DNA of 54,077 bases from Verrucomicrobiota bacterium (GCA_049521735.1 JBEKON010000009.1:1-54077); one strand, 5' to 3'. Positions 23,635-45,841 are shown, counted from the stretch's first letter. Notes: generated from the letters alone by a model not told the origin. Program-made: numbers and translations.

Positions 23635-23637
23635 CAA

Positions 23638-23718: not shown

Positions 23719-23743
23719 TCACCAAGACGCGAAGGCACGAAGT

Positions 23744-23810: not shown

Positions 23811-23894
23811 ACGGCAAACGCCAGACACCGCTGCCCACTTCATGCGTGACAATTGGTTGTTGATTTTGTCAGACGGAAAACGAAGGATGAATCC

Positions 23895-25359: not shown

Positions 25360-25924
25360 AAGTAGCGGCTGACACAATCGAATAAATATTGGAATTTTGC
25401 TTCGACAATTCGTTGAGCAGATTGGCAAACATATATGCGTCGTGCCTGTTCGATTTTTCTTGCGTCATCAACAAGCATGCAAGTTTGTAGAGAAAATCAA
25501 CAGAGTATTCGCCTCGTGTTTCCAACTCTTTGAATTTTTCCAAGTCGCCCACATGTTTGCTGATCGAGGAAAGAAATTCTTCCCGCTCTAAATTTGATTT
25601 CAAGGGTTGCACATCTTTCCACTTTCCCTTGATAAACTCGATGAATTCGATGGTTGTCTCCTTTTTCGTTTGCATTTTGAGAAGTAAGTCCACAGCCCAG
25701 TGGATGTGTTTTGGTGTTCTTGGGCGCGACCATTTATCCTCAATAAATTGCCTGTATTTGATTATGATGTCGAACGGCGAAATACTACCCTCGTAAACAC
25801 CAACAAAAAAATCGCTGCCAACCAGAAAAGTTTTAAGCAGTTTTAGGTCTCTTCCATCCCTGGCAGTAATTACCAACGGAAGATCCGCAGGGTTTTGTGC
25901 TTTATCGGTGTGTTCGATATTCAT
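25343..25924 (-). CDS. Hypothetical protein adjacent to the R-M genes (no recognised domain)
   Basis: 193-aa AT-rich ORF 18 nt downstream of the endonuclease gene. Its 3' end overlaps the convergent PEP-CTERM gene by 17 nt. Confidence 0.5.
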   Translation of the reverse strand: MNIEHTDKAQNPADLPLVITARDGRDLKLLKTFLVGSDFFVGVYEGSISPFDIIIKYRQFIEDKWSRPRTPKHIHWAVDLLLKMQTKKETTIEFIEFIKGKWKDVQPLKSNLEREEFLSSISKHVGDLEKFKELETRGEYSVDFLYKLACLLMTQEKSNRHDAYMFANLLNELSKQNSNIYSIVSAATFSGRG

Positions 25925-25942
25925 TTTTGAACACTCGAACCT

Positions 25943-26482
25943 TTAGGCTGGGTCAGGCAAACCAAGCCACGCGAGTGGCAAGGAACCGAATTTGTAGTGA
26001 CAGTTAACGCTTTGGATGTAATCCAGAACGTCTTTGTAGCGCGGGTCTTTGAACCAATCGCTCAACACGTAAACGTATTCGACTTTCAAACCGAGCGGCG
26101 TGACCAACTTGAGATATTGCTTCCGCTTGAAATCGCACGTCTGCAATTTCTCATCCACCGAACCTTCAACCTGCTGATACTTCACCTCAATGATGAAAAG
26201 CGTTTCGCGCACAATGACAAGCAATGCATCATCTGGTAGTAGCTTCTTTGTAAGCATTGGTTTCCAATTGACGCCTTCCTCGTCCAGAAATTCGTAAAAG
26301 TCGTGCTTGCGGAAACAGCGAGCGACAAGCTGGCCTTTGAAGAAAACTCCTTTACCCGCTTTGCCAGAAACTGGCTTCACTTCGTAGCCAGACTTGGCTG
26401 CAAGCAAGGTTTGGAAATCAACGTGCCTTTCAAAATTCAATCCCGTCAGCGTGTTTGCTCCGCCGAAGCCTTTTTCTTTCAT
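25943..26482 (-). CDS. Putative Type II restriction endonuclease (PD-(D/E)xK fold)
   Basis: 179 aa. LLPDDALLVIVRETLFIIEVKYQQ fits PD...ExK. It overlaps the methyltransferase stop by 4 nt. Specificity is unknown. Confidence 0.6.
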   Translation of the reverse strand: MKEKGFGGANTLTGLNFERHVDFQTLLAAKSGYEVKPVSGKAGKGVFFKGQLVARCFRKHDFYEFLDEEGVNWKPMLTKKLLPDDALLVIVRETLFIIEVKYQQVEGSVDEKLQTCDFKRKQYLKLVTPLGLKVEYVYVLSDWFKDPRYKDVLDYIQSVNCHYKFGSLPLAWLGLPDPA

Positions 26483-27399
26483 TTAAAAAGTTCTCCTTCT
26501 GTTTTTACGATTTCGGCTTTGATGCGTTTCGCCGCGAGCTTCGCGTGCGCTTCGTCCAATTCAATTCCGACGCAGCCACGTTTTAGTTTGATGGAGGCAA
26601 TCGCCGTCGTTCCGCCGCCCAGAAACGGGTCAAGGACGAGGTCGTTTTCGTTTGTTGAAGCCAGCAAACAGCGTTCAACCAGCGCCACGGGTTTTTGCGT
26701 CGGGTGGCGTCCGAATTGTTTTTCATCATTTCCAGGTGCACTGAGTGTCCATATTGAATTGAGCGATAAATCTGCTTTTGCACCCGACAGGCTCGGGGCG
26801 TTAGGCGTCAGGCTTGAGGTTTCCCCCGCGCCTCGCGCCTCGTGCCCCGCGCCTACGCCGCGCCAAACTGTCTTTAATTGTTTTCCAGTAATCGCCTTCA
26901 TCGCGTCGTAATTAAAAACGTGTTTGCTTTTTTCGTTCTTTGCGGCCCACAGAACGGTTTCCGTCGAGTGCGTGAAATAACGGCAGCTTAAGTTGGGCGG
27001 TGGATTGGGTTTTTCCCACGCGATGTCGTTGAGAATTTTATAGCCGAGTTGTTGCATGGCGTAGCCGATGGAGAAAATGACGTGGTGCGTGCCAGTCACC
27101 CAAATTGTGCCGTTCGGTTTCAACACGCGCTGGCAGCGTCGCAACCATTCGACGTTGAATTCGTGGTTCAGTTCCGGTCCGCGCGAGACATCCCAATCGC
27201 CTTTGTCCACCTTGACCATGCGTCCGGCGTGGCAGGTGATGCCGCCGTTGGAGAGGAAATACGGCGGGTCGGCAAAGATGGCGTCGAATCTGCCTTCGGG
27301 ATATTTGGCGGCAATGGCGTCGAGGAGTTCGAGGCAATTGCCGTGGTAAAGACGGAGGAAGGGGTTGTCAGAGGAAAAGATCAACCGTGGGACGGACAT
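26479..27399 (-). CDS. DNA methyltransferase, beta-class N6A/N4C (DPPY before the SAM-binding motif)
   Basis: FADPPYF (motif IV) is followed by FGRHPTQKPVALVERCL..NDLVLDPFLGGGTTAIA (motif I). I set the start at MSVPRLIFSS (27399), because the 83-aa upstream extension of ORF 26479..27648 is built from repeat elements. Confidence 0.85.
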   Translation of the reverse strand: MSVPRLIFSSDNPFLRLYHGNCLELLDAIAAKYPEGRFDAIFADPPYFLSNGGITCHAGRMVKVDKGDWDVSRGPELNHEFNVEWLRRCQRVLKPNGTIWVTGTHHVIFSIGYAMQQLGYKILNDIAWEKPNPPPNLSCRYFTHSTETVLWAAKNEKSKHVFNYDAMKAITGKQLKTVWRGVGAGHEARGAGETSSLTPNAPSLSGAKADLSLNSIWTLSAPGNDEKQFGRHPTQKPVALVERCLLASTNENDLVLDPFLGGGTTAIASIKLKRGCVGIELDEAHAKLAAKRIKAEIVKTEGELFK

Positions 27400-27465
27400 C
27401 TTGTCTGTCTCACTTTTTTCCGATTCAGCAGAAGAATATGGAGACAGGCGGGACGCCTGTCCTAC
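27387..27465. repeat. MITE-like double-hairpin element (family B) overlapping the methyltransferase start codon
   Basis: The right arm gagacaggcgggacgcctgtcctac matches the ligA copy. The degenerate left arm gtgggacggacatcttgtctgtctc contains the MTase ATG (27397-27399, minus strand). Confidence 0.7.
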
Positions 27466-27531
27466 AATCGAACCATCTTCACGAAGTTTGAAATGTGCCG
27501 GGGAAATGGGATGGGCATGGGGCAAGTCAAT

Positions 27532-27585
27532 GGTAGGGACATCTCGCCGAGATGTCCGCGGACGCGTCGGCGACGCGTCCCTACC
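27532..27585. repeat. Family B element bounded by GGTAGGG...CCCTACC
   Basis: ggtagggacatctcgccgagatgtccgcggacgcgtcggcgacgcgtccctacc contains two perfect hairpins between inverted termini. Confidence 0.85.
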
Positions 27586-27730
27586 TTTTGGCGGCGGCTT
27601 ACGATAGAACGGTTTGGGTTTACGTGGCGTTTTGGACTTCTTCGGCACGCCGGGATCAATTGATCAGATCGCGGATCGGGATCAAGGGAATTCCTCCCTC
27701 CTTACCGTTGCTCTCCTGGGAGAATCCGGC

Positions 27731-28168
27731 TCAATCCATCTGCTTTTTCCGATACTGTTTGTGAAGATGTTTGGGAATGGACGGGCTCAAAAATGTGTTC
27801 CCCTTGTGGACTTCCCGAATCGCGTGGCACAGATTGTCAACGGCGGTGTGTTTGATGAGATAGCCCATCGCGCCGGATTTGGCCGCCTCTTCGACATACT
27901 CTTCATCACTATGCGCCGAAAGCATGAGCACTTTGGTGGCAGGGACGGCTTTGAGAATCCGGCGCGTCGCTTGCAAACCACTGAGCAGCGGCATGGCAAT
28001 GTCCATCAGAACCAATGCGGGACGAAGTTTTTTGACCATGGCGACCGCCTGACGGCCGTTTTTCGCTTCGCCGACCACTTCAAGATCGTCTTCGCGTTCC
28101 AGGATCTTTCTAATATCCCTACGCACGAGCGTGTTGTCGTCCGCCAGCAAGACAGTGATTCGCTTCAT
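27731..28168 (-). CDS. Response regulator, receiver domain only (NarL/FixJ-like linker, no HTH)
   Basis: MKRITVLLADDN..LVLMDIAMP..KVLMLSAH...GYLIK is a receiver domain. The protein ends shortly after AIREVHKGNTFLSPSI, where a LuxR-type HTH would normally follow. Confidence 0.8.
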   Translation of the reverse strand: MKRITVLLADDNTLVRRDIRKILEREDDLEVVGEAKNGRQAVAMVKKLRPALVLMDIAMPLLSGLQATRRILKAVPATKVLMLSAHSDEEYVEEAAKSGAMGYLIKHTAVDNLCHAIREVHKGNTFLSPSIPKHLHKQYRKKQMD

Positions 28169-28293
28169 GAAAATAGTGTTACGTCCCTTCGTATCCTTCG
28201 CGCTCTTCGCGCGAAATACCACCACATCAGCGTAAATCTGTGAAATCTACGGCTAAAACTTCGCGCCTTCGTGTCTTGGTGGTTCAAAAACTT

Positions 28294-28842
28294 TTATTTT
28301 TCTCCCTTGTCGTCGGCAAGATAACGTTCGATGTGGCGGTCAAGGTCGGAAAGGCCTCCGGCACAAGTCGCGGCCTGCACTCGCTCCACCATTTCAAGGC
28401 ACCAAGCCTCTTCTTCCACCTGTTCATTGATGAACCACTGCATGAGAAGCTGCGCCGGGTAATCCCTGGCGCCAAGGGCGGCTTCGTAAACCGAATTGAC
28501 GCCTTGTGTGTTGGCCTGCTCCATGGCTTGTGCGTGACGGGCCACTTCGAGGAGCGACTTGAAATCGCACTTGGGCGCAGCGATGGCAGTCGTCTTCGGC
28601 ATTACATCGCGGTCAATAACGTGGGCGATGATTTTCCCCGCGTGAACCTGTTCTTCGGCAGCTTGTTTGGTGAAATAACCCGCAAAGCCTTTCAAGTTCT
28701 GGGTCTCACACCAGATGGACAGGGCGCGATAACTGTGGGCGGCACCGAGTTCCTCATTAAACTGGCGGTTGAGCTCGGCCAGCACTTTTGCGGAGATTTT
28801 AGAGGGATGCATCATGGTTCTTTTGTTGGTTTTCTTAATCAT
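28294..28842 (-). CDS. Ferritin-like protein (non-haem ferritin family)
   Basis: LNRQFNEELGAAHSYRALSIWC....L.GFA.YF..QA.EE..HA.KI......R is the ferritin di-iron pattern. Start is uncertain: Met at 28842 or 28815. Confidence 0.85.
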   Translation of the reverse strand: MIKKTNKRTMMHPSKISAKVLAELNRQFNEELGAAHSYRALSIWCETQNLKGFAGYFTKQAAEEQVHAGKIIAHVIDRDVMPKTTAIAAPKCDFKSLLEVARHAQAMEQANTQGVNSVYEAALGARDYPAQLLMQWFINEQVEEEAWCLEMVERVQAATCAGGLSDLDRHIERYLADDKGEK

Positions 28843-28843
28843 A

Positions 28844-28873
28844 GCAGGGCGGCACATTGCTGCGCCGCCCTGC
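28844..28873 (-). other. GC-rich hairpin between the lipoprotein gene and the ferritin start (terminator or 5'-UTR structure)
   Basis: gcagggcggc / gccgccctgc forms a 10-bp stem with a 10-nt loop and no clear U-tract. It lies directly 5' of the ferritin Met at 28842. Confidence 0.3.
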
Positions 28874-28906
28874 CATTAGAACAATCAGCGGAACCTGCGG
28901 ATTGTT

Positions 28907-29290
28907 TTATTGGGTCTTTTCGACAGCGTTTTTACGGGTGATATCGGCTACAACAACGTGCATCCACCCTTGATCGTATTCTTGAATATAATTGAGGTCA
29001 TAGTTTTTCCAGCCCCTGTTTTTGGCTTCGCTTGCAGCAACAGCCGAGGCCGCTTGTTTCACATAAATGATGCGATCCGTTCCCTTCAAAGCAGTGCCTT
29101 GATGGACGATAACGTGGAAATCTGTGTCATTAACATTCTCAATGGCATAGTTGGGTGAGGTTGGAAGGTTTTGATGGAAATCCTGGTTAAAGGATCCCTC
29201 ATTGGTTGTGGCGCAACCAGTGGCTAAAAGCGCAAGGGTTGCATTCAATAACAGCAGCCGGATTGTCCAGCGGAGTTGATTTATTTTCAT
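28907..29290 (-). CDS. Hypothetical lipoprotein
   Basis: 127 aa with a signal peptide and lipobox (LALLATGC). No recognised domain. Confidence 0.6.
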   Translation of the reverse strand: MKINQLRWTIRLLLLNATLALLATGCATTNEGSFNQDFHQNLPTSPNYAIENVNDTDFHVIVHQGTALKGTDRIIYVKQAASAVAASEAKNRGWKNYDLNYIQEYDQGWMHVVVADITRKNAVEKTQ

Positions 29291-29821: not shown

Positions 29822-31411
29822 TTATTTCGCGTTAATCCCGTCCAGCACCGGCGAGTTCCGAATCACCACATTTGTGACTGAATCGAGCGTGGCCGCCGGC
29901 ACGCCATCGGCAAGCTGCGCTTTGAAGTTGTCCACTTCGAGTCCGTCCACATCCGAACAAGCCATCGCAGGACGAAAGTCATTGGTTACAAAACTCAGGT
30001 TGATGTTTGCCAGTTCCAGGCCGCGAACGTGGCGGGCAAAAACGCCGTAAGCGGGCATTACCCCAATCCGGCTGGGTTCGGGATAACCGGTGCCGAGTTC
30101 CGGCGCGATGCGCGCGGCATTTTCCTTTGTCCCGCCGCCTTTGAAAATGAGCCGGATGTTGTCCAGACGCACCCCTTCCAGCGGCTGGCCGGGCGTGCCG
30201 GTGATTTGGATGCCGCTCATTGGATCAACACCGGTGGCCACCACATTGGAAATGAGAATGTTCCGGCCTTGGCTGTGAGTGGTGACATTCGGCCCGCGAT
30301 TGCGGTCGCCCAGCGTGATGTAAATGGGATACCCGGCGACATCCATCATGCTAATGTTGTTGATGGTGATGTTTTCCATGATGCCACCGTCCACTTCCTC
30401 CAATGCCAGCCCATGGCAACTGCGGAATGTGCAATTGGCCACGGTGATGTTGCGGAAACCGCCGCTGGCCTCGGTCCCGAACTTGATTCGACCCGTTCCG
30501 CGTCCCGGTTTCATCGTGCCGTCGAGCAGCGTGCCTTCCTTAAAACCGGAGACCTGGCAATTCACAATGGTCAGATTTTCCGTAATGACATTCCGGCCCA
30601 GCGCAAAACTGCTCTTGGGGCACAAGCCGTCGTCGCGCGGCGAATTGATTTTGCAATTGGAAACCGTCGTGTTGCGGCAGCAATCGATGTCAATGCCGTC
30701 GCGCTGGGTGTCAATCGTCACGTTGTCCACGTTCAGATTGTCGCAGCCGGTGGCCAGAATGGCGAAATGGCCGCCGTGAAAAATCGTGAAGTCGCGCAGC
30801 AGCACGTTGCGGCACAGCTTGAGCGCGATGGCCTTGTTGCCAATACGGACGGGCGGCAGATTTGTGGCTGAAGGCCCAGGTGTGCCGTCATGGTTGAAGC
30901 CGCACATCTGGTCGAGCACCTTGGGGTCGCGCACCAGCCCGCCGCCGTTGATCATGCCGGTGCCGGTGATGGAAACGTTCGTGAGATTTTCGCCCCAGAT
31001 GAGGCTGTTGTGGAAATACGTGTGCCCGCCGTCCTGATAGCCACCGCGCGTGTATGGCTCGGTCTCGTCATAGGCGTTCAAGTCCTGCGGCGCGCCGAGA
31101 ATCACCGCGCCGGCGTCCAGATACAAATGGATGTTATTGGTCAGGTGGATGCTGCCGCACAGATACGTGCCTGCCGGAACAAAAACTGTTCCCCCGCCCG
31201 CCGCCGACGCAGCCCGGATCGTCCTGTCAATGGCCGGATTGTCCAATGCCTTGCCGTCGCCAATCGCGCCAAAACTCCGCACGTTGAAAACTGTTTTGTG
31301 CGATGCGGGCGTTAATTCGCAGCCGGTTTGAAAAAATGCTCCCAGCGATACGATGCAAAGCACGGCGATTTTTGACGACAAGCGACAGCGGAAGATGCGT
31401 TGGAATTTCAT
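29822..31411 (-). CDS. Pectin-lyase-fold glycoside hydrolase (GH28-like)
   Basis: FNVRSFGAIGDGKALDNPAIDRTIRAASAAGGGTVFVPAGTYLCGSIHL plus parallel beta-helix repeats. I set the start at MKFQRIF (31411), which gives a lipoprotein-like signal (..FFQTGC). Confidence 0.8.
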   Translation of the reverse strand: MKFQRIFRCRLSSKIAVLCIVSLGAFFQTGCELTPASHKTVFNVRSFGAIGDGKALDNPAIDRTIRAASAAGGGTVFVPAGTYLCGSIHLTNNIHLYLDAGAVILGAPQDLNAYDETEPYTRGGYQDGGHTYFHNSLIWGENLTNVSITGTGMINGGGLVRDPKVLDQMCGFNHDGTPGPSATNLPPVRIGNKAIALKLCRNVLLRDFTIFHGGHFAILATGCDNLNVDNVTIDTQRDGIDIDCCRNTTVSNCKINSPRDDGLCPKSSFALGRNVITENLTIVNCQVSGFKEGTLLDGTMKPGRGTGRIKFGTEASGGFRNITVANCTFRSCHGLALEEVDGGIMENITINNISMMDVAGYPIYITLGDRNRGPNVTTHSQGRNILISNVVATGVDPMSGIQITGTPGQPLEGVRLDNIRLIFKGGGTKENAARIAPELGTGYPEPSRIGVMPAYGVFARHVRGLELANINLSFVTNDFRPAMACSDVDGLEVDNFKAQLADGVPAATLDSVTNVVIRNSPVLDGINAK

Positions 31412-31553
31412 ATTTGGGACGGGCAACTTATAAATTTCGGACTGAAGATGCAACCCCCGGACACGTGGGCCGCCAAAACATCACGTCAACCGGTGTCTGA
31501 ATTCCGCACAGGAATAGCCGCAAAAGGGCGCAAAAGACACAGAGATTTTTTTA

Positions 31554-36640: not shown

Positions 36641-38299
36641 ATGAGATTCGTCATGGAAATTGCGAAGTCCAGCGATTCACTTGAAGCACTCCGGCTCGAA
36701 GCCGAGCAAGGAGATTCCAAGGCGCAAAGTGATTTGGGATTACGCTATTACATGGGCGAGGGCGTAACTAAAGATTTCACGGAAGCTCTAAAATGGTATC
36801 GCAAGGCGGCTGAACAGAACGAAGCGTCAGCACAAAACAGCATAGGTCTCTGTTACGCCAGCGGCCAAGGTGTCAAACAAGACCTGACCCAAGCTGTTCA
36901 ATGGTATCGCTTGTCCGCAGAAAAAGGTAACCGCTGTGGCCAAAACAACCTTGGAACGTGCTATGACGAAGGGCAGGGTATTGCCCAAGATTCGGCTCAA
37001 GCAGTCGAATGGTATCGTCGCGCTGCCGAACAAGGGAACAGCGAAGCCCAAAACAATCTCGCAATTTGTTACGAACAGGGGCGTGGTGTGCAAAAAGATT
37101 TGTCCGAAGCAGCCAGGTATTACCGGCTTGCTGCGGAACAAGGCCACGAATACGCCCAGAGGAATCTCGGCTTGTGCTATCGGGACGGATTGGGTGTTTC
37201 TCGGGATGCAGTCGAGGCCATCAAATGGCTTCGGAAGGCAGCCGATAAAGAATTTGTTCCTGCACAGTTGTCGCTTGTCTTGACTTATAGAAATGGCCGC
37301 GGTGTTCCCAAAGACCAACAAGAAGCACTCAAATGGCTGCGTAAAGCAGCCGAAAATGGAGATGCAAACGCCCAGACTTGGCTGGGGCTCGTGCACTACT
37401 TAGGCCGCGACCTGCCACGCGACTTGGCAGAATCAGCCAAATGGTTTCGGCGGGCGGCTGAAGCCGGAGAGGCTGCTGGCCAATCGAGCTATGGTCGTCT
37501 TTTGTTGACTGGTCAGGGTATCGGCAAAAATCCGATCGAAGCCGTTCAGTGGTTTCGGAAAGCGGCGACTCAAGGAGATGCACACGGAGAATACTGTCTC
37601 GGTGTATGCTACGCTAGCGGACTCGGAACGGACAAAGACTTTGACGAGGCTCGTAGGTGGTTTCAGTTGGCTGCCCGGAAGAATTATTTAGATGCCAAAT
37701 ATCGTCTTCGACTGCTTTTTTTCCAAAAGCATTCGATTTTGAAATGGCGTAACATCGTCATTTCAACTCTTGGTTGCGCACTGCTGATTTTGCATGGAGT
37801 CCGTTTTCCCATTTCAGTCAATGGTTTTGCCATAGCAGCTTTCCTCGGAATTCTTGCCACCAGTGGCGTGGTCTTCATTGCAGCCATGGCATTGATGGAA
37901 AAGTTAGGTGTGAAAGTATTGGATGAAAAGGAGGCAGACGCGATCAATGAGCGGCTTTTTTCTATGTTGAGAAAAGAACCTTGGAGACTTCTGCTCATTC
38001 CAGCAGAGGATGGCGTCTTTCTTTTGCCTCTGCTCTATGTTGGAATTAGCCCCGTCTCGGCTGCCGTGGCAGCTTTCCTTTTTGCGGTGGCTCACTACCC
38101 CGGCTTTCCATGGCGATATTGCATACCCAAGGGCATAGCCTATTTCTTCGTGGCGCTGTTTATTCTTCCCTATGGCATCTGGTCTGTCGTCGTAGCTCAC
38201 CTGATTGTTGATGTCGGCCTATGGGTGGTCATGTTGGTGGTGAAGGTGGAAGGGAAACCGACTTGGCGCCGGCTTCTCCGAGTATTACGAACTGAATGA
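36641..38299 (+). CDS. Sel1-repeat protein fused to a polytopic CPBP-like (CAAX-protease-like) membrane domain
   Basis: About 9 Sel1/SLR repeats (A..WYRKAAEQG...AQ..LG.CY..G.GV..D). These are followed by 5-6 TM helices containing FAVAHY and VVAHLIVD, which resemble CPBP motifs 2 and 3. Confidence 0.75.
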   Translation: MRFVMEIAKSSDSLEALRLEAEQGDSKAQSDLGLRYYMGEGVTKDFTEALKWYRKAAEQNEASAQNSIGLCYASGQGVKQDLTQAVQWYRLSAEKGNRCGQNNLGTCYDEGQGIAQDSAQAVEWYRRAAEQGNSEAQNNLAICYEQGRGVQKDLSEAARYYRLAAEQGHEYAQRNLGLCYRDGLGVSRDAVEAIKWLRKAADKEFVPAQLSLVLTYRNGRGVPKDQQEALKWLRKAAENGDANAQTWLGLVHYLGRDLPRDLAESAKWFRRAAEAGEAAGQSSYGRLLLTGQGIGKNPIEAVQWFRKAATQGDAHGEYCLGVCYASGLGTDKDFDEARRWFQLAARKNYLDAKYRLRLLFFQKHSILKWRNIVISTLGCALLILHGVRFPISVNGFAIAAFLGILATSGVVFIAAMALMEKLGVKVLDEKEADAINERLFSMLRKEPWRLLLIPAEDGVFLLPLLYVGISPVSAAVAAFLFAVAHYPGFPWRYCIPKGIAYFFVALFILPYGIWSVVVAHLIVDVGLWVVMLVVKVEGKPTWRRLLRVLRTE

Positions 38300-38420: not shown

Positions 38421-39821
38421 ATGAAAACATTTCATGTCCCCGGTAAATTTATGGTTCTGTCTTTCCTGCTGCTTTCAGCCTTCGCCATCGAAGCGGCCAC
38501 CTCCACCGCGTTGTTCAACGTGCGCAACTACGGGGCCTTCGGTGACGGCAAGCATCTGGAAAACTTCGCCATCAACAGGGCCATCGCGGCCTGCGCCAAT
38601 GCCGGGGGCGGCACGGTCTATCTGCCGCCGGGGAAATATCTGTCCGGCACCATCGTGCTGAAGAGCCATGTCACTCTGGATTTGGACGCGGGCGCGACGA
38701 TTCTCGGCAGCGAGAACCCGGAAGATTACCCGACGCTCAAGGATCCCTGGGGCGGCGACCGGGCGGAAATATCCCCGTTGATTTACGCGGAAGATGCAGA
38801 AAACATCACTATTACTGGCCGTGGCACCATCAACGGCCAGGGACAGATTTGGTGGAAACGGCAATGGCTGGCGTTTCCCAAAAAAGGAATGCCCGAGGCG
38901 AAAACTCCCGAGGATTTTGACGAGGTGAAAAAGATTTCCCGCGGCCGGCCCCAGTTGATCCGGCTGGTGCGCTGCAACGACGTGGTGATCGAGCATTTGA
39001 ATTTGACGAATTCGCCGAGCTGGAACGTGCATCCGCTCTTTTGCGAATTCGTGCGCGTGGATGGCCTGACCATTTCCACGCCGGTGCCGTCGCCGAACAC
39101 GGACGGCATCAACCCGGAGAGCTGCCGGAACGTGCAAATCATCAACTGCCGCATTGATACCGGCGACGATTGCGTGACCTTGAAATCGGGCATCAATGAA
39201 ACGGGCCGACGCATGGGCCGGCCGGACGAGAACATCACAATCGCCAACTGCGTGATGAAGAAAGGCCACGGCGGCGTGACCATCGGCAGCGAGATGTCCG
39301 GCGGGGTGCACAATGTCACGGTGGCGAACTGCGTGTTTCAGGGCACGGACATCGGGATTCGCGTCAAGGCGCAGCGCGGTCGCGGCAACGTGGTGGAAGG
39401 CCTGACGGTGGCCAATGTCGTGATGCAGGACGTGCCGCATCCGTTCACCATCACGACGTTTTACCATGGCAGCGACCAGCCGGGTGATGTTTATCCCGTG
39501 GACGAGGGGACGCCGCGTTTCCGCGATTTTCTTTTCAGCAACATCACGGCCCGGGGCGCCAAGGACGCCGGCAGCATCACCGGCCTGCGCGAATTGCCCA
39601 TCGAGAACATCTCGTTCAGCAACGTTCACATCCAGGCCGCCAAAGGGTTCACCTGCACCAATGCCCGGGAAATCTCCTTCCTGGATGTGGTCATCAACAC
39701 CGACGAAGGCCCGGCCCTGATTCTGCGCAATGCCACGGGCATAGATTCCTCGCGCTTGCGGACCCAGACCCCGCACCAGGACGTTCCCTTGGTGGATTCC
39801 GACGCGTCGGCGAGCCAGTAG
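38421..39821 (+). CDS. Glycoside hydrolase family 28 (polygalacturonase-like)
   Basis: Signal peptide, FNVRNYGAFGDGK, then the GH28 catalytic motifs SPNTDGINP, TGDDCVTLKSG, KGHGGVTIGSE and GIRVKA. Confidence 0.85.
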   Translation: MKTFHVPGKFMVLSFLLLSAFAIEAATSTALFNVRNYGAFGDGKHLENFAINRAIAACANAGGGTVYLPPGKYLSGTIVLKSHVTLDLDAGATILGSENPEDYPTLKDPWGGDRAEISPLIYAEDAENITITGRGTINGQGQIWWKRQWLAFPKKGMPEAKTPEDFDEVKKISRGRPQLIRLVRCNDVVIEHLNLTNSPSWNVHPLFCEFVRVDGLTISTPVPSPNTDGINPESCRNVQIINCRIDTGDDCVTLKSGINETGRRMGRPDENITIANCVMKKGHGGVTIGSEMSGGVHNVTVANCVFQGTDIGIRVKAQRGRGNVVEGLTVANVVMQDVPHPFTITTFYHGSDQPGDVYPVDEGTPRFRDFLFSNITARGAKDAGSITGLRELPIENISFSNVHIQAAKGFTCTNAREISFLDVVINTDEGPALILRNATGIDSSRLRTQTPHQDVPLVDSDASASQ

Positions 39822-39927: not shown

Positions 39928-40230
39928 ATGAACAAGTCCATGCCTTCGCTATTCCAGAGCGTGTGCCTGCGATTGGCGGATGATGTGACCTTTCAATCGC
40001 TGGGACCCGGTGAGGAAACGGTCGTGCTCTCGCTCAACTCCGGCTATCTATATACCTGCAATGAAACTACTGCCGCCTTTTTGCGGGGACTGGACGGCAA
40101 ACAATCACTGGCCGCGGTGATTGACTCGCTCTTTAACGAGTTTCAGGTTTCCCGGGCAACGTTGAGCAAGGACATGACGGCATTAGCAGCAAAGCTGCTG
40201 GAGGAGAAACTCCTCGTTGAAGAACCCTGA
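39928..40230 (+). CDS. PqqD-family RiPP recognition element (lasso B1-like)
   Basis: Internal Met of ORF 39844..40230. ..LADDVTFQSLGPGEETVVLSLNSGYLYTCNETTAAFLRGLDGKQSLAAVIDSLFNEFQVSRATLSKDMTALAAKLLEEKLL is the PqqD pattern. Confidence 0.8.
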   Translation: MNKSMPSLFQSVCLRLADDVTFQSLGPGEETVVLSLNSGYLYTCNETTAAFLRGLDGKQSLAAVIDSLFNEFQVSRATLSKDMTALAAKLLEEKLLVEEP

Positions 40231-40648
40231 ACATACATTTTACGCAGGCCGGCTGCTGTTGCGCGGGCATATCTGGCTGCTGGCAACGCTGATTCCGTTG
40301 CTGGAAAAAATCCTCCCCTTAAAATACTTATTGCGTCTGTTGACACCGCCGCCACGTTTCAAACCCTATGGCGGCATGCTCCCGGAAGAAATCTCCCGGT
40401 GGGTTGCCCACCGATTGCGTCAGCCGCGAAATATGCGCCGGCGCGCCTGCCTGCGGCATGGGCTGACTTTGTTCCACTTCCTAAGGCTGGCGGGCTGCCC
40501 GGCGGTTCTGCACATTGGAGTTTTCCCGCCGCAGTTTGACAGTCGGCGGATGCACGCGCATTGCTGGGTGACCCTCAACGGCGTCTGTTTGATCCCGCCG
40601 CCCGAACAGCCGGCAGCAACTCTCCTGACTTACTGCCCGGCGGAATAA
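40217..40648 (+). CDS. Lasso-peptide B2-type leader protease (transglutaminase-core cysteine protease)
   Basis: 143 aa with a TTG start overlapping the PqqD gene by 14 nt. RRACLRHGLTLFHFLRLAGCPAVLHIGV.......MHAHCWV fits the B2 Cys...His pattern. Confidence 0.8.
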   Translation: MKNPEHTFYAGRLLLRGHIWLLATLIPLLEKILPLKYLLRLLTPPPRFKPYGGMLPEEISRWVAHRLRQPRNMRRRACLRHGLTLFHFLRLAGCPAVLHIGVFPPQFDSRRMHAHCWVTLNGVCLIPPPEQPAATLLTYCPAE

Positions 40649-40766
40649 CATGCGGCAAGAATTGGTACTATGAGCAAATGGTTTGACAGATGCCTGTCAA
40701 ATTGGGACAACACGCACAATTGGATTGGGATTCGAAATTGGCCATCTAAGAACAAGTTTTAATCGT

Positions 40767-40904
40767 GTGAAAACATCAAAAAAACAAACCTTGCCGGAAA
40801 ACAAGAAACAGAAACGCGATTACGTCAAACCGGAGATCAAAAAGCGCGAACAGATCAAGGAAGTCACAGAACAACAAGGCCCCGGGCCCGTCACTGTGGA
40901 GTAG
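40767..40904 (+). CDS. RiPP precursor 1 (leader + core QQGPGPVTVE)
   Basis: GTG start. (M)KTSKKQTLPENKKQKRDYVKPEIKKREQIKEVTE|QQGPGPVTVE. It is the 3' part of track ORF 40683..40904. Confidence 0.7.
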   Translation: MKTSKKQTLPENKKQKRDYVKPEIKKREQIKEVTEQQGPGPVTVE

Positions 40905-40913
40905 AAATGTCAT

Positions 40914-41045
40914 ATGAAAACATCAAAAAAACAAACCCCGCCGGAAAACAAGAAACAGAAACGCGACTACGTTAAACCGGAGATCAAAAAGCGCGAACAA
41001 ATCAAGGAAATCACAGAACAACCAACCCCCGGAACCGTCTTTTGA
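40914..41045 (+). CDS. RiPP precursor 2 (core QPTPGTVF)
   Basis: Own translation: MKTSKKQTPPENKKQKRDYVKPEIKKREQIKEITE|QPTPGTVF*. 43 aa, below the track cutoff. Confidence 0.7.
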   Translation: MKTSKKQTPPENKKQKRDYVKPEIKKREQIKEITEQPTPGTVF

Positions 41046-41059
41046 CATCGAAATACCAT

Positions 41060-41527
41060 ATGAAAACATCAAAAAAACAAACCCCGCCGGAAAACAAGAA
41101 ACAGAAACGCGACTACGCCCCGCCGGAGATCAAAAAGCGCGAACAAATCAAGGAAACCACGGAAGGCACGCCTCCGGTCATCACGCCAGTACTCATATCG
41201 GATCGCAACGCCAAGAAAAACTTCCAATCAGTGGATACCGTGGCCGTGCTGGAAAAGCTGGCTGCCATTCCCGTTGAACGGTGGAATTACAAATGGGAGA
41301 AGGACGGCGATGTGCCGCATCTTGGCCCGATGGCGCAGGATTTCAAAGGCGCGTTTTATCCCGGTCGCGATGACAAGAGCATCAGCACCTTGGAATTCCA
41401 TGGCGTGGAACTGGCGGCGATCCAGGGGTTGAATCAGAAACTGGAAGAAAAGGATGCGGAAATTCAGGCGCTCAAGCAGAGTGTTGCCGAACTCAAACAA
41501 CTGGTTTCGCAGTTGACCCAAAATTAA
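41060..41527 (+). CDS. RiPP precursor 3 fused to a peptidase-S74 intramolecular-chaperone (self-cleaving) domain
   Basis: MKTSKKQTPPENKKQKRDYAPPEIKKREQIKETTE|GTPPVITPVLI|SDRNAKKNFQSVDTVAVLEKLAAIPVERWNYKW....HLGPMAQDFKGAF...LAAIQGLNQKLEEKDAEIQALK. The tail matches the SDxxxK..I...W.YK..GxIAQ.. coiled-coil S74 pattern. Confidence 0.75.
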   Translation: MKTSKKQTPPENKKQKRDYAPPEIKKREQIKETTEGTPPVITPVLISDRNAKKNFQSVDTVAVLEKLAAIPVERWNYKWEKDGDVPHLGPMAQDFKGAFYPGRDDKSISTLEFHGVELAAIQGLNQKLEEKDAEIQALKQSVAELKQLVSQLTQN

Positions 41528-41532
41528 ATTGT

Positions 41533-41670
41533 ATGAAAACATCAAAAAAAGAAACCCTGCCAGAGAATAAAAGGCGGAAGCGGGACTACGCCCAGCCGGA
41601 GATTAAAAAGCGCGAACAGATCAAGGAAGTGACGGAAGGCGGTGGCCCGGTTGTCACAACAAAGGACTGA
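41533..41670 (+). CDS. RiPP precursor 4 (core GGGPVVTTKD)
   Basis: Own translation: MKTSKKETLPENKRRKRDYAQPEIKKREQIKEVTE|GGGPVVTTKD*. Confidence 0.7.
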   Translation: MKTSKKETLPENKRRKRDYAQPEIKKREQIKEVTEGGGPVVTTKD

Positions 41671-41675
41671 ATATA

Positions 41676-41819
41676 ATGAAAACGCCGAAAGAACAAACCC
41701 AGCCGGAGACCGAGAAACAGAAGCGCGACTACGTCAAACCGGACATCAAAAAACGCGAACAAATCAGGGAAGTCACGGAAGGCGACGAAGTGTTTGTCAC
41801 AACAGAGACCAAAAGATAA
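41676..41819 (+). CDS. RiPP precursor 5 (core GDEVFVTTETKR)
   Basis: Own translation: MKTPKEQTQPETEKQKRDYVKPDIKKREQIREVTE|GDEVFVTTETKR*. Confidence 0.7.
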   Translation: MKTPKEQTQPETEKQKRDYVKPDIKKREQIREVTEGDEVFVTTETKR

Positions 41820-41956
41820 TGAAAACATCGGAAAATCAAACCCCGACGGAAAACAAGGAACAGAAGCGCAACTACGTCCAGCCGGAGATCAAAAAGCGCG
41901 AACAGATCAAGGAAATCACGGAAGGCCCGGGCCCAGTCGTCACTGCTACAGGGTAG
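41819..41956 (+). CDS. RiPP precursor 6 (core GPGPVVTATG)
   Basis: The ATG overlaps the stop of precursor 5 (TAATG). MKTSENQTPTENKEQKRNYVQPEIKKREQIKEITE|GPGPVVTATG*. It is the 3' part of track ORF 41642..41956. Confidence 0.7.
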   Translation: MKTSENQTPTENKEQKRNYVQPEIKKREQIKEITEGPGPVVTATG

Positions 41957-41965
41957 AAATATCAT

Positions 41966-42103
41966 ATGAAAACATCCAAAGAACAAACCCAGCCGGAAAT
42001 CAAGAAACAGAAACGCGACTACGCCCCGCCGGAGATCAAAAAGCGCGAACAGATCAAGGAAGTCACAGAATTCCCCTTATTGATCGTTACTCCCGAGAAG
42101 TAA
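41966..42103 (+). CDS. RiPP precursor 7 (core FPLLIVTPEK)
   Basis: Own translation: MKTSKEQTQPEIKKQKRDYAPPEIKKREQIKEVTE|FPLLIVTPEK*. Confidence 0.7.
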   Translation: MKTSKEQTQPEIKKQKRDYAPPEIKKREQIKEVTEFPLLIVTPEK

Positions 42104-42112
42104 AAATACTTC

Positions 42113-42256
42113 ATGAAAACATCCAAAAAACAAACCCAGCCGGAAAACAAGGAACAGAAACGCGACTACGCCCCGCCGGAGATCAAAAAGCGCGAACAAA
42201 TCCGGGAAGTGACGGAAGGCAGTGGCCCAAGCGTCACAACCAAACCGCCGCCGTAA
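42113..42256 (+). CDS. RiPP precursor 8 (core GSGPSVTTKPPP)
   Basis: Own translation: MKTSKKQTQPENKEQKRDYAPPEIKKREQIREVTE|GSGPSVTTKPPP*. Confidence 0.7.
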   Translation: MKTSKKQTQPENKEQKRDYAPPEIKKREQIREVTEGSGPSVTTKPPP

Positions 42257-42381
42257 AGACTTGCAAGCGGTCAACAAAAGACGCTTGTCAGAGCCGTTAG
42301 ATTTCCATCCTTGAGTAGCCGGCTGGTTGCAGCCGGCAAAAACGTTGTTTTCTCGTTCTTGTTTATCCCCTCGAATCAACC

Positions 42382-43371
42382 ATGAGTCCGGCGAAAACAC
42401 ATTACGACTTGCACGGCATGCGAATGACGGTGGAAGCGCCGAGTCAATCGCTGCTGGATGTGATTCATGTGCTTCTGGGCGCTTACGCAGATTCCGGCAA
42501 CGGTGCGGACGGATTCCATGTGAGTCTGGATTACGGGCAGCCACGGCAAAAAGCCGACCCGGGTTTGCATAAATTTTGGACGGGCACACTGCCCAGTGGC
42601 ACCCGGATGATTTGCCGCAGTGGTCCGAACCGGCGGCAGATTGAGATACCGGACCATGTCTGCGCTGACATTGATCTGGCCAAACGCATTGCCAGGATCG
42701 TTGTGAGTCCAGACAACAAAGCCGGCCTGCTGGAAACCTGTTTCCTGCCGTTGCTATGCGATTGTCTCGGGTTGAACGGCCATCATGTGATCCATGCCGC
42801 CAGTCTGTTCGTTCAGGCCGGTGGCCAGCGACGTGCGCTCATCTTCTCGGGCATGAGCGGTCGCGGAAAAACCACACTGGCGCTGGCACTGGCCGGGGCG
42901 GGTCTGGGCATGCTGGCTGACGACATGACTTTTTACCAGGCCGCGACCGCGAACCGGCCGGGACAAATCTGGGGAATCCGAATCCGCTGCAAGGTGCATT
43001 CACGAACGCTTGAGTTGCTCCCCTGGCTGCAAGATTTTCCCATGGGCAGCGTCAGTTCGAATGGCGAGCGGCTTCTGGATATACGGTCATTGAAACCACA
43101 GACAGCCGGTCTGATGGCATCACCGGGATTGATCCTTTTTCTGAATCCGCGAAATGCGGAGTCCCACCAGATTGAGCCGGTGGACAAGGTCACGGCGCTG
43201 ACACGATTGACTCGGGAAAACGTCCGGGCGCTCGATCAGCGCCGCGAGGCCGTGGCAGGCCGGGCCTTTGGAGCGCTGGCGGAGTTGGTGCGTTCCAGCC
43301 GGACTTTCCAAGTCAGCCTCTGCCCGCGTCTGGAAGAATTGCCAGAGCAACTCGCTTCCCTGTGGTCATGA
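42382..43371 (+). CDS. HPr-kinase-like P-loop protein (lasso-cluster-type peptide kinase homologue)
   Basis: HVIHAASLFVQAGGQRRALIFSGMSGRGKTTLALALAGAGLGMLADDMTF matches the HAsav..G.a.lf.G.SG.GKSTLA....G...L.DD pattern of HPrK-related kinases. Confidence 0.7.
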   Translation: MSPAKTHYDLHGMRMTVEAPSQSLLDVIHVLLGAYADSGNGADGFHVSLDYGQPRQKADPGLHKFWTGTLPSGTRMICRSGPNRRQIEIPDHVCADIDLAKRIARIVVSPDNKAGLLETCFLPLLCDCLGLNGHHVIHAASLFVQAGGQRRALIFSGMSGRGKTTLALALAGAGLGMLADDMTFYQAATANRPGQIWGIRIRCKVHSRTLELLPWLQDFPMGSVSSNGERLLDIRSLKPQTAGLMASPGLILFLNPRNAESHQIEPVDKVTALTRLTRENVRALDQRREAVAGRAFGALAELVRSSRTFQVSLCPRLEELPEQLASLWS

Positions 43372-44381
43372 TGTTCCTGAACCAAACCCATTCCCTGCTC
43401 CTGGCGCTGGCGGATCCCCGCGGCCCGGCTGACGCCATTGATTTTGCTCCACCGGCGCCGGTGAAGCTGCGGCGGCTGCTGGAATTGGCGGATCAGCATG
43501 GCGTGCTGGCCATCGTCATGGAAAATCTCAAACAGTTGATAAGCCGGGAAAACGGACAATGGCATTCCTTTCAGCCGGACCCGGCCGTGTGGGAGTGGAC
43601 ACGGCAACGAATGCGGCAGCGGACAGGAATGTCACTCGTGCTGCGCGGGCAGGTCATGGAAATCATCACTCGCATGCAAAAAGCGGGATTGCCGGCAGTC
43701 ATCCTGAAGGGTTGCGATTTTGCCGATCGGCTTTATCCGCATCCGTCGTTGCGCCCGTTCACCGATGTGGACCTGCTGATTCCACAACGGATTCTCCCCG
43801 AAACCCGGCAGGTGTTCAAAGAATTGGGTTATAAGCCGGTCGAGGTGCAAATGAAGCATCAAACCGGTTACGGCGAGGAAAGCTGGCGTCATCCCAATCG
43901 CTCCGGCGGCACGGTGGAGATTCATTGGAACCTGGTGAATTCGCCGTCGCTGCGGCGCGCATTGTCCGTAACGTATGATGACCTGCAACTTGAGACGCAT
44001 CAGAACCAGCCACGCCCCAGCGCTACGGCCACGTTGTTGATCGCGGCGGTGCATGGTGTGGCCAGTCACGGCGTTGACCGGTTGCAAGTGCTTGGCGATG
44101 TGGTCCAGGCTGTTCGCGGGACAGCTGGAACGCTGGACGAAGCCTGGCTTGCTCAAGCCGTTCCCCAAACCGGGACAGACCGTGCACTGGCAACGGCGCT
44201 GGCATTGGCCTATAAAGTGTATGGGGAACCAAACTGTGTGAACCTGATGAAACGCTTGGGGATTGAGCGCCGGGCCTGGCCGGGCAATCTGTTGCTGACC
44301 CGCGGTGTCGTGCTGCGCGCCCACGCTTCGCGCGATTCGTTCCGCCGACAGTTGTTGCGGGAATTGTTAAAACACAAATGA
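43368..44381 (+). CDS. Uncharacterised nucleotidyltransferase family protein (PF14907-like)
   Basis: ..LLELADQHGVLAIV...L.., AGLPAVILKGCDFADRLYPHPSLRPFTDVDLLIPQ. The ATG at 43368 overlaps the kinase stop (ATGA). Confidence 0.7.
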   Translation: MMFLNQTHSLLLALADPRGPADAIDFAPPAPVKLRRLLELADQHGVLAIVMENLKQLISRENGQWHSFQPDPAVWEWTRQRMRQRTGMSLVLRGQVMEIITRMQKAGLPAVILKGCDFADRLYPHPSLRPFTDVDLLIPQRILPETRQVFKELGYKPVEVQMKHQTGYGEESWRHPNRSGGTVEIHWNLVNSPSLRRALSVTYDDLQLETHQNQPRPSATATLLIAAVHGVASHGVDRLQVLGDVVQAVRGTAGTLDEAWLAQAVPQTGTDRALATALALAYKVYGEPNCVNLMKRLGIERRAWPGNLLLTRGVVLRAHASRDSFRRQLLRELLKHK

Positions 44382-45841
44382 ACGTCCTGCTCGTTTATCC
44401 CGCGCCACCGCCTTCGGCCTGGCCCAAGGGCGCTTTTCGTTCCCGCTGGATTCCGTCCGGGCTGGCCTGCATTGCCACCGTGCTGCGCCGGGGCGGGCAT
44501 CGGGTTAAAATCCATCTCTGCGAAGAAACACTGGAACTGAATCATTATGCCCGGGCTGCAGCCCGGGCATCGCTCCAGGCGCAGATGCGGGATTTTCGGC
44601 CCGAGATTGTGGGCTTGTCACTCGTCACCTCCGGTGTGCCCGAGGGTGCAATCGTGGCGGAAGATGCCAAGACATTGCTGGGTCCGCAGACACTGGTGGT
44701 GGCCGGCGGACCGCATCCGACCGTCCTTTCCGAAGAACTGCTGGCTGGTTGCCCGGCCATTGACGCAGCCGTCATCGGCGAAGGCGAACTGACCATGCTG
44801 GAGCTGGCCGATCATGGCCTCTCGCCATCCGTCAGCGGAATCGTGTTGCGCCGCAACGGGACGCTGATGCGCACGCCTCCACGCGCGGCGGTGAAAGACC
44901 TCGACAGCTTGGGGCCTCCCGCCTACGACCTGTTCAACGTGAAACATTTCACGGCGCCAAGCCGGTGGTTGATTCGGTTTCTGAAACTCCCGGCCACCAA
45001 TCTCCGCACGAGCCGCGGCTGTTCTCATCGCTGCAGCTTCTGCGCCGGCCACCTCGTCGCCGGACTGGGCGTGCGCTATCATTCCATCGAATACGTCCTT
45101 GACCAGATGCGCCACGCCGCGACACGCCTCGGCGCAACAGCCATTCGTTTTGAGGACGACACTGTCGGGGCGGATCGTGGAAGATTGTTGGAATTATGCG
45201 CGGCCATCCGCCGGGCCGGTTTGCACAAGCAGCTGAAATGGGAGGCGTGCCTCCGGGTCAATCAGGCCGACGCCGAAATACTAGCCGAGATGAAGGCCGC
45301 CGGCTGCATCCAGGTTGAATACGGTTTTGAAAGCGGCTCGACGGAGTCGCTGCGGCGGCTTGGCAAACAGACGGACATCGAGTTGAACCGGCGCGCCGTT
45401 GAACTGACACGGCGGGCGGGCTTGCGCATTTTCGCGGACATCATGGTGGGTTTGCCAGGCGAGACTCCCGAAGATTTGAAAGCCACAGTGCGGTTCCTGC
45501 GCTGGGCCCGGCCTGAAATTATTTCCGCAGCACGGCTTTGTCCGTTGCCGGGAACACCCATTTACAACAACCTTGATCCCGCCGTGCGGTCAAAGATCGG
45601 TTGGGAAGATTTCAGTTATCCGGACAGCCAGGTGAATCCGGTAAATTTGACAGCCATGCCCGACCGGCAAATCAATGAATTATACCGGAAGTTCATGAAA
45701 TATTCCATTCGTCCGCAAATGACATGGGCATTGCTCCGGGACACACCCGCCGCCGAGCGCCGAAAGCAGTGGCCAATGTGCAAAAACCTGGCCCGATTCG
45801 TCCTGCGCCATCCGCTTAAAGCCATGCGGGTGCCGTGGTAG
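44378..45841 (+). CDS. B12-binding-domain radical SAM enzyme (class B rSAM)
   Basis: N-terminal cobalamin-binding Rossmann region (VLLVYP...GLACIATVLRRGGHRVKI..IVGLSL..VVAGGPHPT) and a CxxxCxxC cluster (SRGCSHRCSFCAG). The ATG overlaps the previous stop (ATGA). Confidence 0.85.
   Translation: MNVLLVYPAPPPSAWPKGAFRSRWIPSGLACIATVLRRGGHRVKIHLCEETLELNHYARAAARASLQAQMRDFRPEIVGLSLVTSGVPEGAIVAEDAKTLLGPQTLVVAGGPHPTVLSEELLAGCPAIDAAVIGEGELTMLELADHGLSPSVSGIVLRRNGTLMRTPPRAAVKDLDSLGPPAYDLFNVKHFTAPSRWLIRFLKLPATNLRTSRGCSHRCSFCAGHLVAGLGVRYHSIEYVLDQMRHAATRLGATAIRFEDDTVGADRGRLLELCAAIRRAGLHKQLKWEACLRVNQADAEILAEMKAAGCIQVEYGFESGSTESLRRLGKQTDIELNRRAVELTRRAGLRIFADIMVGLPGETPEDLKATVRFLRWARPEIISAARLCPLPGTPIYNNLDPAVRSKIGWEDFSYPDSQVNPVNLTAMPDRQINELYRKFMKYSIRPQMTWALLRDTPAAERRKQWPMCKNLARFVLRHPLKAMRVPW

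Follow-up and report, generated by a model that had tools for sequence, protein, structure and literature searches.

What is made by an operon that carries the leader-handling proteins of lasso peptide biosynthesis and no lasso cyclase? The question is raised by thirteen genes at positions 39928-45841 of a 54,077-nucleotide stretch of DNA from a Verrucomicrobiota bacterium (GCA_049521735.1 JBEKON010000009.1:1-54077), the whole of which we call the window. The genes encode a PqqD-family B1 protein, a lasso-type B2 peptidase, eight tandem precursors of peptides that are made on the ribosome and modified after translation (RiPPs), a kinase of the HPr-kinase/PEPCK fold, a PF14907 nucleotidyltransferase (NTase) and a B12-radical SAM (rSAM) enzyme. 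We propose that the locus is a functional RiPP operon that descended from clusters of the phosphorylated-lasso type, has no cyclase, and yields a non-lasso product by the chemistry set out below; we put the probability of this reading at roughly 55%. A first-pass annotation of the window had described thirteen tightly packed, co-directional genes with a 14-nt overlap between the PqqD and B2 genes and two ATGA overlaps, and the listing of open reading frames (ORFs) returns all thirteen on the + strand, with coordinates that reproduce each overlap:

39928..40230, + strand: PqqD-family RiPP recognition element (RRE), a lasso B1-like leader-binding protein of 100 residues (PF05402)
40217..40648, + strand: B2 transglutaminase-core Cys protease, the leader peptidase, 143 residues, TTG start (PF13471, NF033537)
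40767..40904, + strand: precursor 1, GTG start, leader ...YVKPEIKKREQIKEVTE, core QQGPGPVTVE (leader tblastn, motif scan)
40914..41045, + strand: precursor 2, core QPTPGTVF (ORF listing, motif scan)
41060..41527, + strand: precursor 3, core GTPPVITPVLI, fused to a Peptidase_S74 (ICA) domain and a C-terminal coiled coil (PF13884)
41533..41670, + strand: precursor 4, core GGGPVVTTKD (ORF listing, motif scan)
41676..41819, + strand: precursor 5, core GDEVFVTTETKR (ORF listing, motif scan)
41819..41956, + strand: precursor 6, core GPGPVVTATG, start overlapping the precursor 5 stop (ORF listing, tblastn)
41966..42103, + strand: precursor 7, core FPLLIVTPEK (ORF listing, motif scan)
42113..42256, + strand: precursor 8, core GSGPSVTTKPPP (ORF listing, motif scan)
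42382..43371, + strand: HPr-kinase/PEPCK-fold P-loop kinase, 329 residues, a putative Ser/Thr7 peptide kinase (weak TIGR04352, motifs, AlphaFold)
43362..44381, + strand: PF14907 nucleotidyltransferase, 339 residues (PF14907)
44378..45841, + strand: class B (cobalamin-binding) radical SAM enzyme, 487 residues, ATGA overlap with the NTase gene (PF02310 and PF04055)

The NTase gene may start at GTG 43362 or at an alternative ATG at 43368, the latter forming the ATGA overlap with the kinase stop, and the stop of precursor 5 overlaps the start of precursor 6 at 41817-41821 as TAATG.

The lack of a cyclase was assessed with Pfam PF00733 on scanned ORFs and with a six-frame scan for the PP-loop motif SGGxDS. 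No Asn_synthase domain was found among the large window ORFs scanned and none of the six frames of the 54 kb contains SGGxDS, in agreement with the earlier statement that the window holds no lasso cyclase. The companion statement, that there is no exporter, stands in that no ABC exporter appears among the large ORFs scanned; it is less firm than the absence of the cyclase because only part of the window ORFs was scanned against Pfam. Beyond the window we surveyed B2 gene neighbourhoods, 18 reference-genome loci and 26 metagenome loci reached via a kinase profile, with tblastn. A cyclase was not found in 57 of the 58 other loci examined, with up to 10 kb of flank each, the exception being a Paenibacillus control, and Pfam scans of about 20 flanking large ORFs of related loci gave no Asn_synthase. 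The first-pass annotation had allowed for a lasso cyclase tied to orthologous clusters, and no related module locus contains the PP-loop motif. The control (L030, from Paenibacillus cellulosilyticus), which was found via its NTase, is a canonical paeninodin-type cluster in the order NTP5, Asn_synthase (SGGLDS), HprK-like, PqqD, B2 and ABC exporter; the recovery of its cyclase and exporter shows that the Pfam and motif checks detect a cyclase where one is present. Its kinase and PF14907 NTase are the two accessory genes that the first-pass annotation had named for some lasso clusters, of the paeninodin type. The only linked ABC component seen in the survey is an ABC-membrane ORF beside the L019 module, and no exporter is conserved in linkage.

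The cyclase-less arrangement is not confined to the window. B2 homologues form 110 clusters of NCBI-named lasso B2 proteins from metagenome-assembled genomes (MAGs) of Verrucomicrobiota, Phycisphaerae and Planctomycetia, and the survey of neighbourhoods of B2 homologues without a cyclase finds the order PqqD-B2-(precursors)-kinase-NTase in about 35 distinct loci of Verrucomicrobiota, Planctomycetota and metagenomes, with unrelated flanks (L005-L008, L011-L019, L021, L023, L025-L028, L031-L045, L057 and L058). In B2 the closest loci are about 92% identical and the most distant 35-47%, the module persists to about 27% kinase identity (L040, L044, L057), and in tblastn searches the kinase always adjoins the NTase. 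The Verrucomicrobiota loci have the rSAM gene after the NTase gene, and so have many of those from Planctomycetota and metagenomes. Loci L021, L026 and L028 have no rSAM next to the NTase, nor has L025, where a copy of 47% identity lies about 8 kb off on the opposite strand; in L057 (406-4097), which diverges most of all members (kinase 27-28% identical), PqqD-B2-kinase-NTase leads into Formyl_trans_N in place of an rSAM. As the rSAM is missing or replaced in some loci, the invariant set consists of B1, B2, kinase and NTase. The first-pass annotation was thus right to count the B12-rSAM as a member of this operon, but it does not belong to the invariant enzyme set of the family and is, judged from these gene neighbourhoods, a frequent but optional tailoring enzyme. 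The formyltransferase of L057 suggests that tailoring enzymes are exchangeable, and perhaps that N-terminal formylation occurs.

The precursor genes form a tandem array with a 147-bp period (40768-42240), broken by an S74 insertion in copy 3. All eight genes expected from the first-pass annotation are present, precursor 1 starting at GTG 40767; precursor 3 is not the short peptide it was taken for, and encodes a 155-residue fusion to an S74 domain. The N-terminal halves of the eight are near-identical: per nucleotide, precursor DNA in the window diverges by 0.14 in the leaders versus 0.59 in the cores, and in the leader the third codon position has an excess of changes. A conserved leader joined to a hypervariable core is the classic RiPP pattern. 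Related loci carry arrays of up to 11 copies, and the most divergent loci (L039, L040 and L043-L045) have no recognisable precursors. Our statistics on leaders and cores are drawn from 59 family precursors; about 20 more were collected from metagenomes.

Leader handling almost certainly works as it does in lasso pathways. A leader motif Y(-17)xxP(-14)x[L/I](-12)...T(-2) occurs in all eight window precursors, and Y(-17), P(-14), L/I(-12) and T(-2) are found in almost all of the 59 family precursors, with A, I or M in place of T(-2) in some. According to PMC10368454, lasso pathways require the YxxPx[L/I] residues and T(-2) for B1 to bind and for B2 to cleave, and the match of these recognition positions at a conserved ...TE/G junction fixes the cleavage site. 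The proteins that would read this motif have the expected domains, as the first-pass annotation had proposed. The RRE matches PF05402 (E=1.7e-11) and, weakly, the NCBIfam models of lasso PqqD proteins; its best matches in the PDB, both weak, are the lasso B1 proteins TfuB1 (6jx3, E=0.0064) and TbiB1 (E=0.39), and it is 43-89% identical to its counterparts in related loci. The protease matches PF13471 (E=2.8e-9) and NCBIfam NF033537, lasso_biosyn_B2, at 49.2 bits against a cutoff of 33. Its proposed catalytic residues, the Cys of RRACLR and the His of HAHCWV, are Cys78 and His115, both invariant in an alignment of 17 homologues; conservation does not extend to the Asp that would complete the triad. 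The AlphaFold model of B2 (pLDDT 82.6) gave no significant Foldseek match against the PDB, its transglutaminase-like matches being weak (E>0.2), and PDB sequence searches with the kinase, NTase and B2 gave no useful match. NCBI labels these B2 proteins 'lasso peptide biosynthesis B2 protein'.

Consideration of the cores gives insight into how the product departs from a lasso peptide. Family cores have 7-23 residues, mostly 8-13. Gly occupies core position 1 in 32/59, Pro position 4 in 38/59, and Val or Ile is common at positions 5-6. A Ser or Thr stands at position 7 in 30 of the 32 Gly1 cores and within positions 6-8 in 57/59, with Gly at position 8 in 15/57. The observation in the first-pass annotation that most cores lack Asp or Glu at positions 7-9 extends to the whole family: six of the eight window cores have none and two have Glu at position 9, and across the family such an acid is present in 10/59 and missing from 49/59. 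The cores of several relatives have only 7-8 residues and end in Ser (GEPVVIS, GPLPLVS, GAPPIVLS, GTPSRVS); those of the window have an internal Thr7 and no C-terminal Ser. In paeninodin and pseudomycoidin the accepting hydroxyl is that of a C-terminal Ser, in Bsf that of an internal Ser3. All loci without the rSAM retain the core Ser/Thr, which associates it with the kinase and NTase rather than with the rSAM. We also considered a correlation between the presence of the rSAM and a core tail after Ser/Thr7, and rejected it, as L038 and L058 have both an rSAM and cores that end in Ser.

The two enzymes that travel with the Ser/Thr are a kinase and a nucleotidyltransferase, as had been claimed. 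NCBIfam matches to the kinase are weak (TIGR04352, HprK_rel_A, 33.6 bits; also HprK_rel_B), and a Pfam scan of its 329 residues gave no match. An alignment of 23 homologues shows H138, a Walker A element SGxSGxGKTT and an ADD motif to be invariant, and these we take to be the catalytic elements of the HPr kinase/phosphorylase signature. The AlphaFold model (pLDDT 89.3) has PEPCK structures as its top Foldseek matches (E~1e-8), and no HprK structure is among the 50 matches listed; PEPCK and HPr kinase share a P-loop phosphotransferase fold. The NTase matches PF14907 with E=3.9e-35. Its KG and DxD motifs are invariant and its E/H motif nearly so, in a comparison that takes in the NTase of a Deinococcus locus without a cyclase and that of the Paenibacillus lasso cluster.

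The enzyme that closes the operon is a cobalamin-binding radical SAM protein, as first annotated, with matches to PF02310 (E=3.7e-17) and PF04055 (E=2.4e-21) and the CxxxCxxC motif present as CSHRCSFC. Against the named NCBIfam subfamilies HpnJ, BchE, ApyD and PhpK it scores below every cutoff (best HpnJ, 143 bits, with BchE and ApyD), and its relatives in the PDB are AprD4, TokK and TsrM. It shares an N-terminal B12-binding domain and an rSAM core with the class B rSAM C-methyltransferases (clavusporin MpcB, polytheonamide PoyC, the bottromycin methylases and ApyD); unlike these, the operon-type rSAM is dispensable in part of its family. The clavusporin substrate, core KPSVGITITVPFR, is rich in Val, Ile, Thr and Pro, as are the cores here. 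The differences are that the operon rSAM has CxxxCxxC where MpcB has Cx7Cx2C, and that the operon has no S9 peptidase, DUF5825 or MFS transporter partners. We claim no homology to MpcB: a match at 30% identity on the S. clavuligerus megaplasmid is not the mpcB locus, as it has no MpcA core and carries CxxxCxxC.

From these components we propose the following pathway, of which the chemical steps, their order and the biological role are what we infer. PqqD would bind the YxxPx[L/I] leader motif and present the precursor to the other enzymes. The HPr-kinase-like enzyme would phosphorylate the Ser/Thr at core position 7, which in some relatives is the C-terminal Ser; the NTase may add a glycosyl or nucleotidyl group to that phosphate or to the hydroxyl, compare PsmN in pseudomycoidin; the rSAM, by analogy, may C-methylate the Val/Ile/Thr/Pro-rich core; and B2 would cleave after T(-2)-E(-1). 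The predicted products are a small library of modified linear peptides of 8-12 residues. Precedents exist for these modifications: HprK homologues of lasso clusters phosphorylate the C-terminal Ser of the linear precursor, and the NTase of the pseudomycoidin cluster adds hexose to the phosphate (PMC8498205); in the Bsf system, phosphorylation by BsfK is B1-dependent and falls on an internal Ser3, with Thr also accepted (PMC10368454); and clavusporin, a 13-mer, receives 7-8 beta-methylations, an example of a B12-rSAM acting on V/I/T/P-rich short cores (bioRxiv 10.1101/2024.01.23.576971). It is from these precedents and the retained NTase motifs that B1-guided phosphorylation of Ser/Thr7, its NTase-dependent elaboration, and C-methylation are inferred. 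What the family probably yields is a new kind of very short peptide, phosphorylated and methylated.

Several points weigh against this reading. The kinase and NTase are 24-39% identical, over partial length, to their Paenibacillus and Deinococcus counterparts, and at this distance substrate and regiochemistry cannot be transferred with confidence. As the window cores do not end in Ser, the kinase specificity that is best characterised, for a C-terminal Ser, cannot be carried over as it stands. The rSAM falls outside the characterised subfamilies, the operon has no linked exporter or immunity gene, and the cyclase search covers the window and loci with up to 10 kb of flank rather than whole genomes. 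The modifications themselves are proposed from sequence and analogy.

Three alternatives were weighed. Ordinary lasso peptides, with the cyclase and exporter encoded elsewhere in the genome, would account for the canonical lasso character of B1, B2 and the leader motif, for the 10/59 cores with Asp or Glu at positions 7-9 (two of them in the window), and for the negative cyclase search, given its reach. Against it, 49/59 cores have no acceptor at positions 7-9 and several, at 7-8 residues, are too short to thread a ring; PF00733 is absent from the ORFs scanned, and SGGxDS from the 54-kb window and the other loci examined with up to 10 kb of flank, while the control shows both, and in lasso clusters the cyclase is normally linked to B. 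We consider it very improbable. A decaying, non-functional remnant of a lasso cluster that has lost its cyclase deserves even less credence, and we give it almost none: frameshifted kinase or rSAM matches in L017, L019 and L026 and the existence of partnerless B2 genes are what decay would leave, but none of the thirteen ORFs here is broken and they are translationally coupled, conservation of the module spans two phyla across the range of B2 identity from ~92% to 35-47%, precursor arrays have grown to up to 11 copies, purifying selection holds the leader while the core diversifies, and the Ser/Thr7 motif is maintained.

A third possibility keeps the ring and changes its chemistry. The kinase and NTase would activate Ser/Thr7, and the Gly1 amine freed by B2 would attack, directly or via a dehydro-amino acid, to close a seven-residue N-terminus-to-side-chain ring that is not an isopeptide. 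The hydroxyl residue does lie, at position 7 (6-8 overall), within the lasso acceptor window of 7-9; Gly1 is preferred as in lasso peptides, Gly is frequent at position 8, and loci that lack the cyclase invariably have the kinase/NTase pair. We know of no HprK-like or PF14907 enzyme that promotes elimination or cyclisation, however, no lyase-like gene is conserved in the module, and cores with a C-terminal Ser7/8 fit plain phosphorylation of that Ser, as in paeninodin; such a macrocycle seems to us distinctly unlikely. We regard as speculative, and as unlikely, the wider idea that either Ser/Thr7 has replaced the lasso acid acceptor, giving a non-amide seven-residue ring and a new macrocyclic RiPP class, or the NTase leaves its nucleotide on phospho-Ser/Thr, giving heptapeptide-nucleotide conjugates that are microcin C-like in concept. 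The linear, modified peptide accords better with the evidence, and the suggestion of the first-pass annotation that lasso B1/B2 machinery was recruited to a non-lasso short-peptide product is supported by the ~35 cyclase-less loci, the positive control and the low count of acids (10/59).

The closest known systems are the clusters of phosphorylated and phosphoglycosylated lasso peptides (paeninodin, pseudomycoidin and the Bradymonas Bsf system), with which the family has in common the B1/B2 split, the HprK-like kinase, the PF14907 NTase, the Y(-17)xxP(-14)xL(-12) and T(-2) leader, and the Gly1 core. It differs from them in having neither an Asn-synthetase-like cyclase nor a conserved linked ABC exporter; in placing Ser/Thr, not Asp/Glu, at the ring-acceptor position; in cores of 7-13 residues, too short for a threaded lasso, encoded in multi-copy arrays; in the addition of a B12-rSAM or formyltransferase; in its hosts, Verrucomicrobiota and Planctomycetota; and in its enzymes, at 24-39% identity over parts to those of Paenibacillus (from a lasso cluster) and Deinococcus (no cyclase). 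Lasso peptides are defined by the macrolactam that the cyclase forms. The locus has B1, B2, the leader motif, the kinase and the NTase of such clusters; the class-defining cyclase was not found and most cores lack the acid acceptor, and the locus should therefore not be filed as a lasso cluster.

What full-text literature searches brought up was limited to reviews and papers about canonical phosphorylated lasso peptides, with no published description of a cyclase-less B1/B2/kinase/NTase family, which accords with the earlier remark that the architecture was not recognised as a described RiPP class. We conclude that the operon probably represents a RiPP pathway built from lasso parts and defining a new RiPP class; confirmation of the products would establish that class. 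The gene content, domain identities, conservation of the module, leader motif, Ser/Thr7 motif and lack of a cyclase in the sequence examined are established. With respect to these the first-pass annotation had the domains and the missing cyclase right; it overlooked the Ser/Thr7 motif, the canonical YxxPx[L/I]...T(-2) leader, the optional nature of the rSAM and the S74 fusion. The family shows lasso leader recognition and cleavage, together with the kinase/NTase pair, kept over a long evolution without the cyclase, with the acceptor shifted from acid to hydroxyl. If our reading is true, B1/B2 pairs release very short peptides and the kinase/NTase pair acts on an internal Thr. Genome-mining rules that call every B1 and B2 pair 'lasso' mis-annotate this cyclase-less family, whose producers (peat-bog Verrucomicrobiota, Phycisphaerae and Brocadiaceae) are poorly explored and largely uncultured.

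Precursor 3 adds a further feature to this picture. Its 155 residues comprise the leader, the core GTPPVITPVLI, and then SDRNAKKNF..., an S74 domain followed by a coiled coil. The S74 part lies at window positions 41198-41527 and matches PF13884 (E=7.5e-12, residues 53-104 of the ORF starting at 41042), while the C-terminus has weak matches to coiled-coil families. A Ser-x4-Lys dyad, SDRNAK, occupies residues 47-52 at the N-terminal edge of the domain, with a spacing equal to that of S587/K592 in MyRF. In MyRF and endoNF, which carry this dyad, cleavage falls immediately before the Ser (PMC8326128), and a cut at that point would release the leader with an 11-residue core. The S74 domain would thus act as a self-removing follower peptide, taking itself off just before the catalytic Ser to leave the 11-residue core. 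A variant in which the cleavage leaves a C-terminal Ser for the kinase was rejected, as the MyRF structure paper places the cut before the catalytic Ser (PMC8326128).

The resemblance to Peptidase S74/ICA proteins lies in the PF13884 match, the SDRNAK dyad and a C-terminal coiled coil of the trimerisation kind; the difference is that precursor 3 has only 46 residues of leader and core before the domain and no long triple beta-helix fibre. We know of no earlier self-cleaving follower domain on a RiPP precursor, and this S74 fusion would be the first. Fusions of leader, core and S74 domain, with different cores, also occur in L011 (10864-11331), in L006 (10671-11135)/L016 and in P0166. A search against 1.84 billion representative proteins gave 14,726 matches at E up to 0.001. 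Among the best 150 of these 14,726, identity between residues 45-153 and the C-termini of the matched proteins is typically 62-84%, and these proteins reach about 1700 residues and mostly have 300-1300; among the matches listed, only one other representative cluster has the leader-core-S74 layout. The high identity to the C-termini of long proteins suggests a recent capture, and the domain was probably taken from a resident fibre-like gene family, with the fusion kept in one Verrucomicrobiota lineage.

Some B2 homologues stand outside the module. Orphan B2 genes, 57-66% identical to the window B2 and with catalytic Cys and His intact (L001/L002, 10001-10444; L004, 10001-10423; L009/L010, 10001-10414), stand alone, flanked by an aldehyde dehydrogenase gene and an Amidase_3 gene in housekeeping surroundings that are conserved; within 10 kb there is neither a PqqD gene nor one for a precursor, kinase or NTase. 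Within the module loci, kinase tblastn matches are split over frames in L017, L019 and L026, as is the rSAM in L017; these are either frameshifts (pseudogenes) or MAG assembly errors. A more distant set is found on a Deinococcus psychrotolerans plasmid (L029; NZ_CP034185.1, 111128-125331), with an HprK-like gene, PqqD, a 63-residue precursor (YSSPRLEKAGQWQALTL followed across the junction by ARSFPIGVGSLNF...) and an NTase-B2 fusion; an ExeM/NucH nuclease gene lies between the cluster genes, and no cyclase or PP-loop motif occurs within 7 kb. Cyclase-less sets of kinase, NTase, B1 and B2 may thus exist outside Verrucomicrobiota and Planctomycetota.

The bounding genes named in the first-pass annotation, GH28 upstream and kdsB-pyrG-folC downstream, lie outside the module, and the flanks of L006 are entirely different. 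Promoter and terminator scans did no better than on shuffled sequence, an Rfam search gave no match, and the window has no tRNA genes. Two genes upstream of the operon, a Sel1 protein with nine repeats (36641-38299) has a hydrophobic C-terminal region that weakly resembles CPBP/Rce1-like intramembrane proteases. Its candidacy as an immunity gene was rejected, as the match (16.6 bits) does not reach the cutoff and other genomes do not keep the gene beside the module. At 22000-29000 the window has a lower GC content (0.45-0.52, versus about 0.55-0.59 elsewhere); this island holds an N6_N4 DNA methylase gene (26479-27648, - strand), a weak PD-(D/E)XK nuclease match (25943-26482, - strand) and several ORFs without a Pfam match, and is possibly a restriction-modification or mobile island. 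Two genes of the GH28/pectate-lyase fold, at 29822-31453 (- strand) and 38421-39821, are 32% identical to each other and less than 10 kb apart; unrelated to the operon, they point to a pectin-degrading lifestyle.

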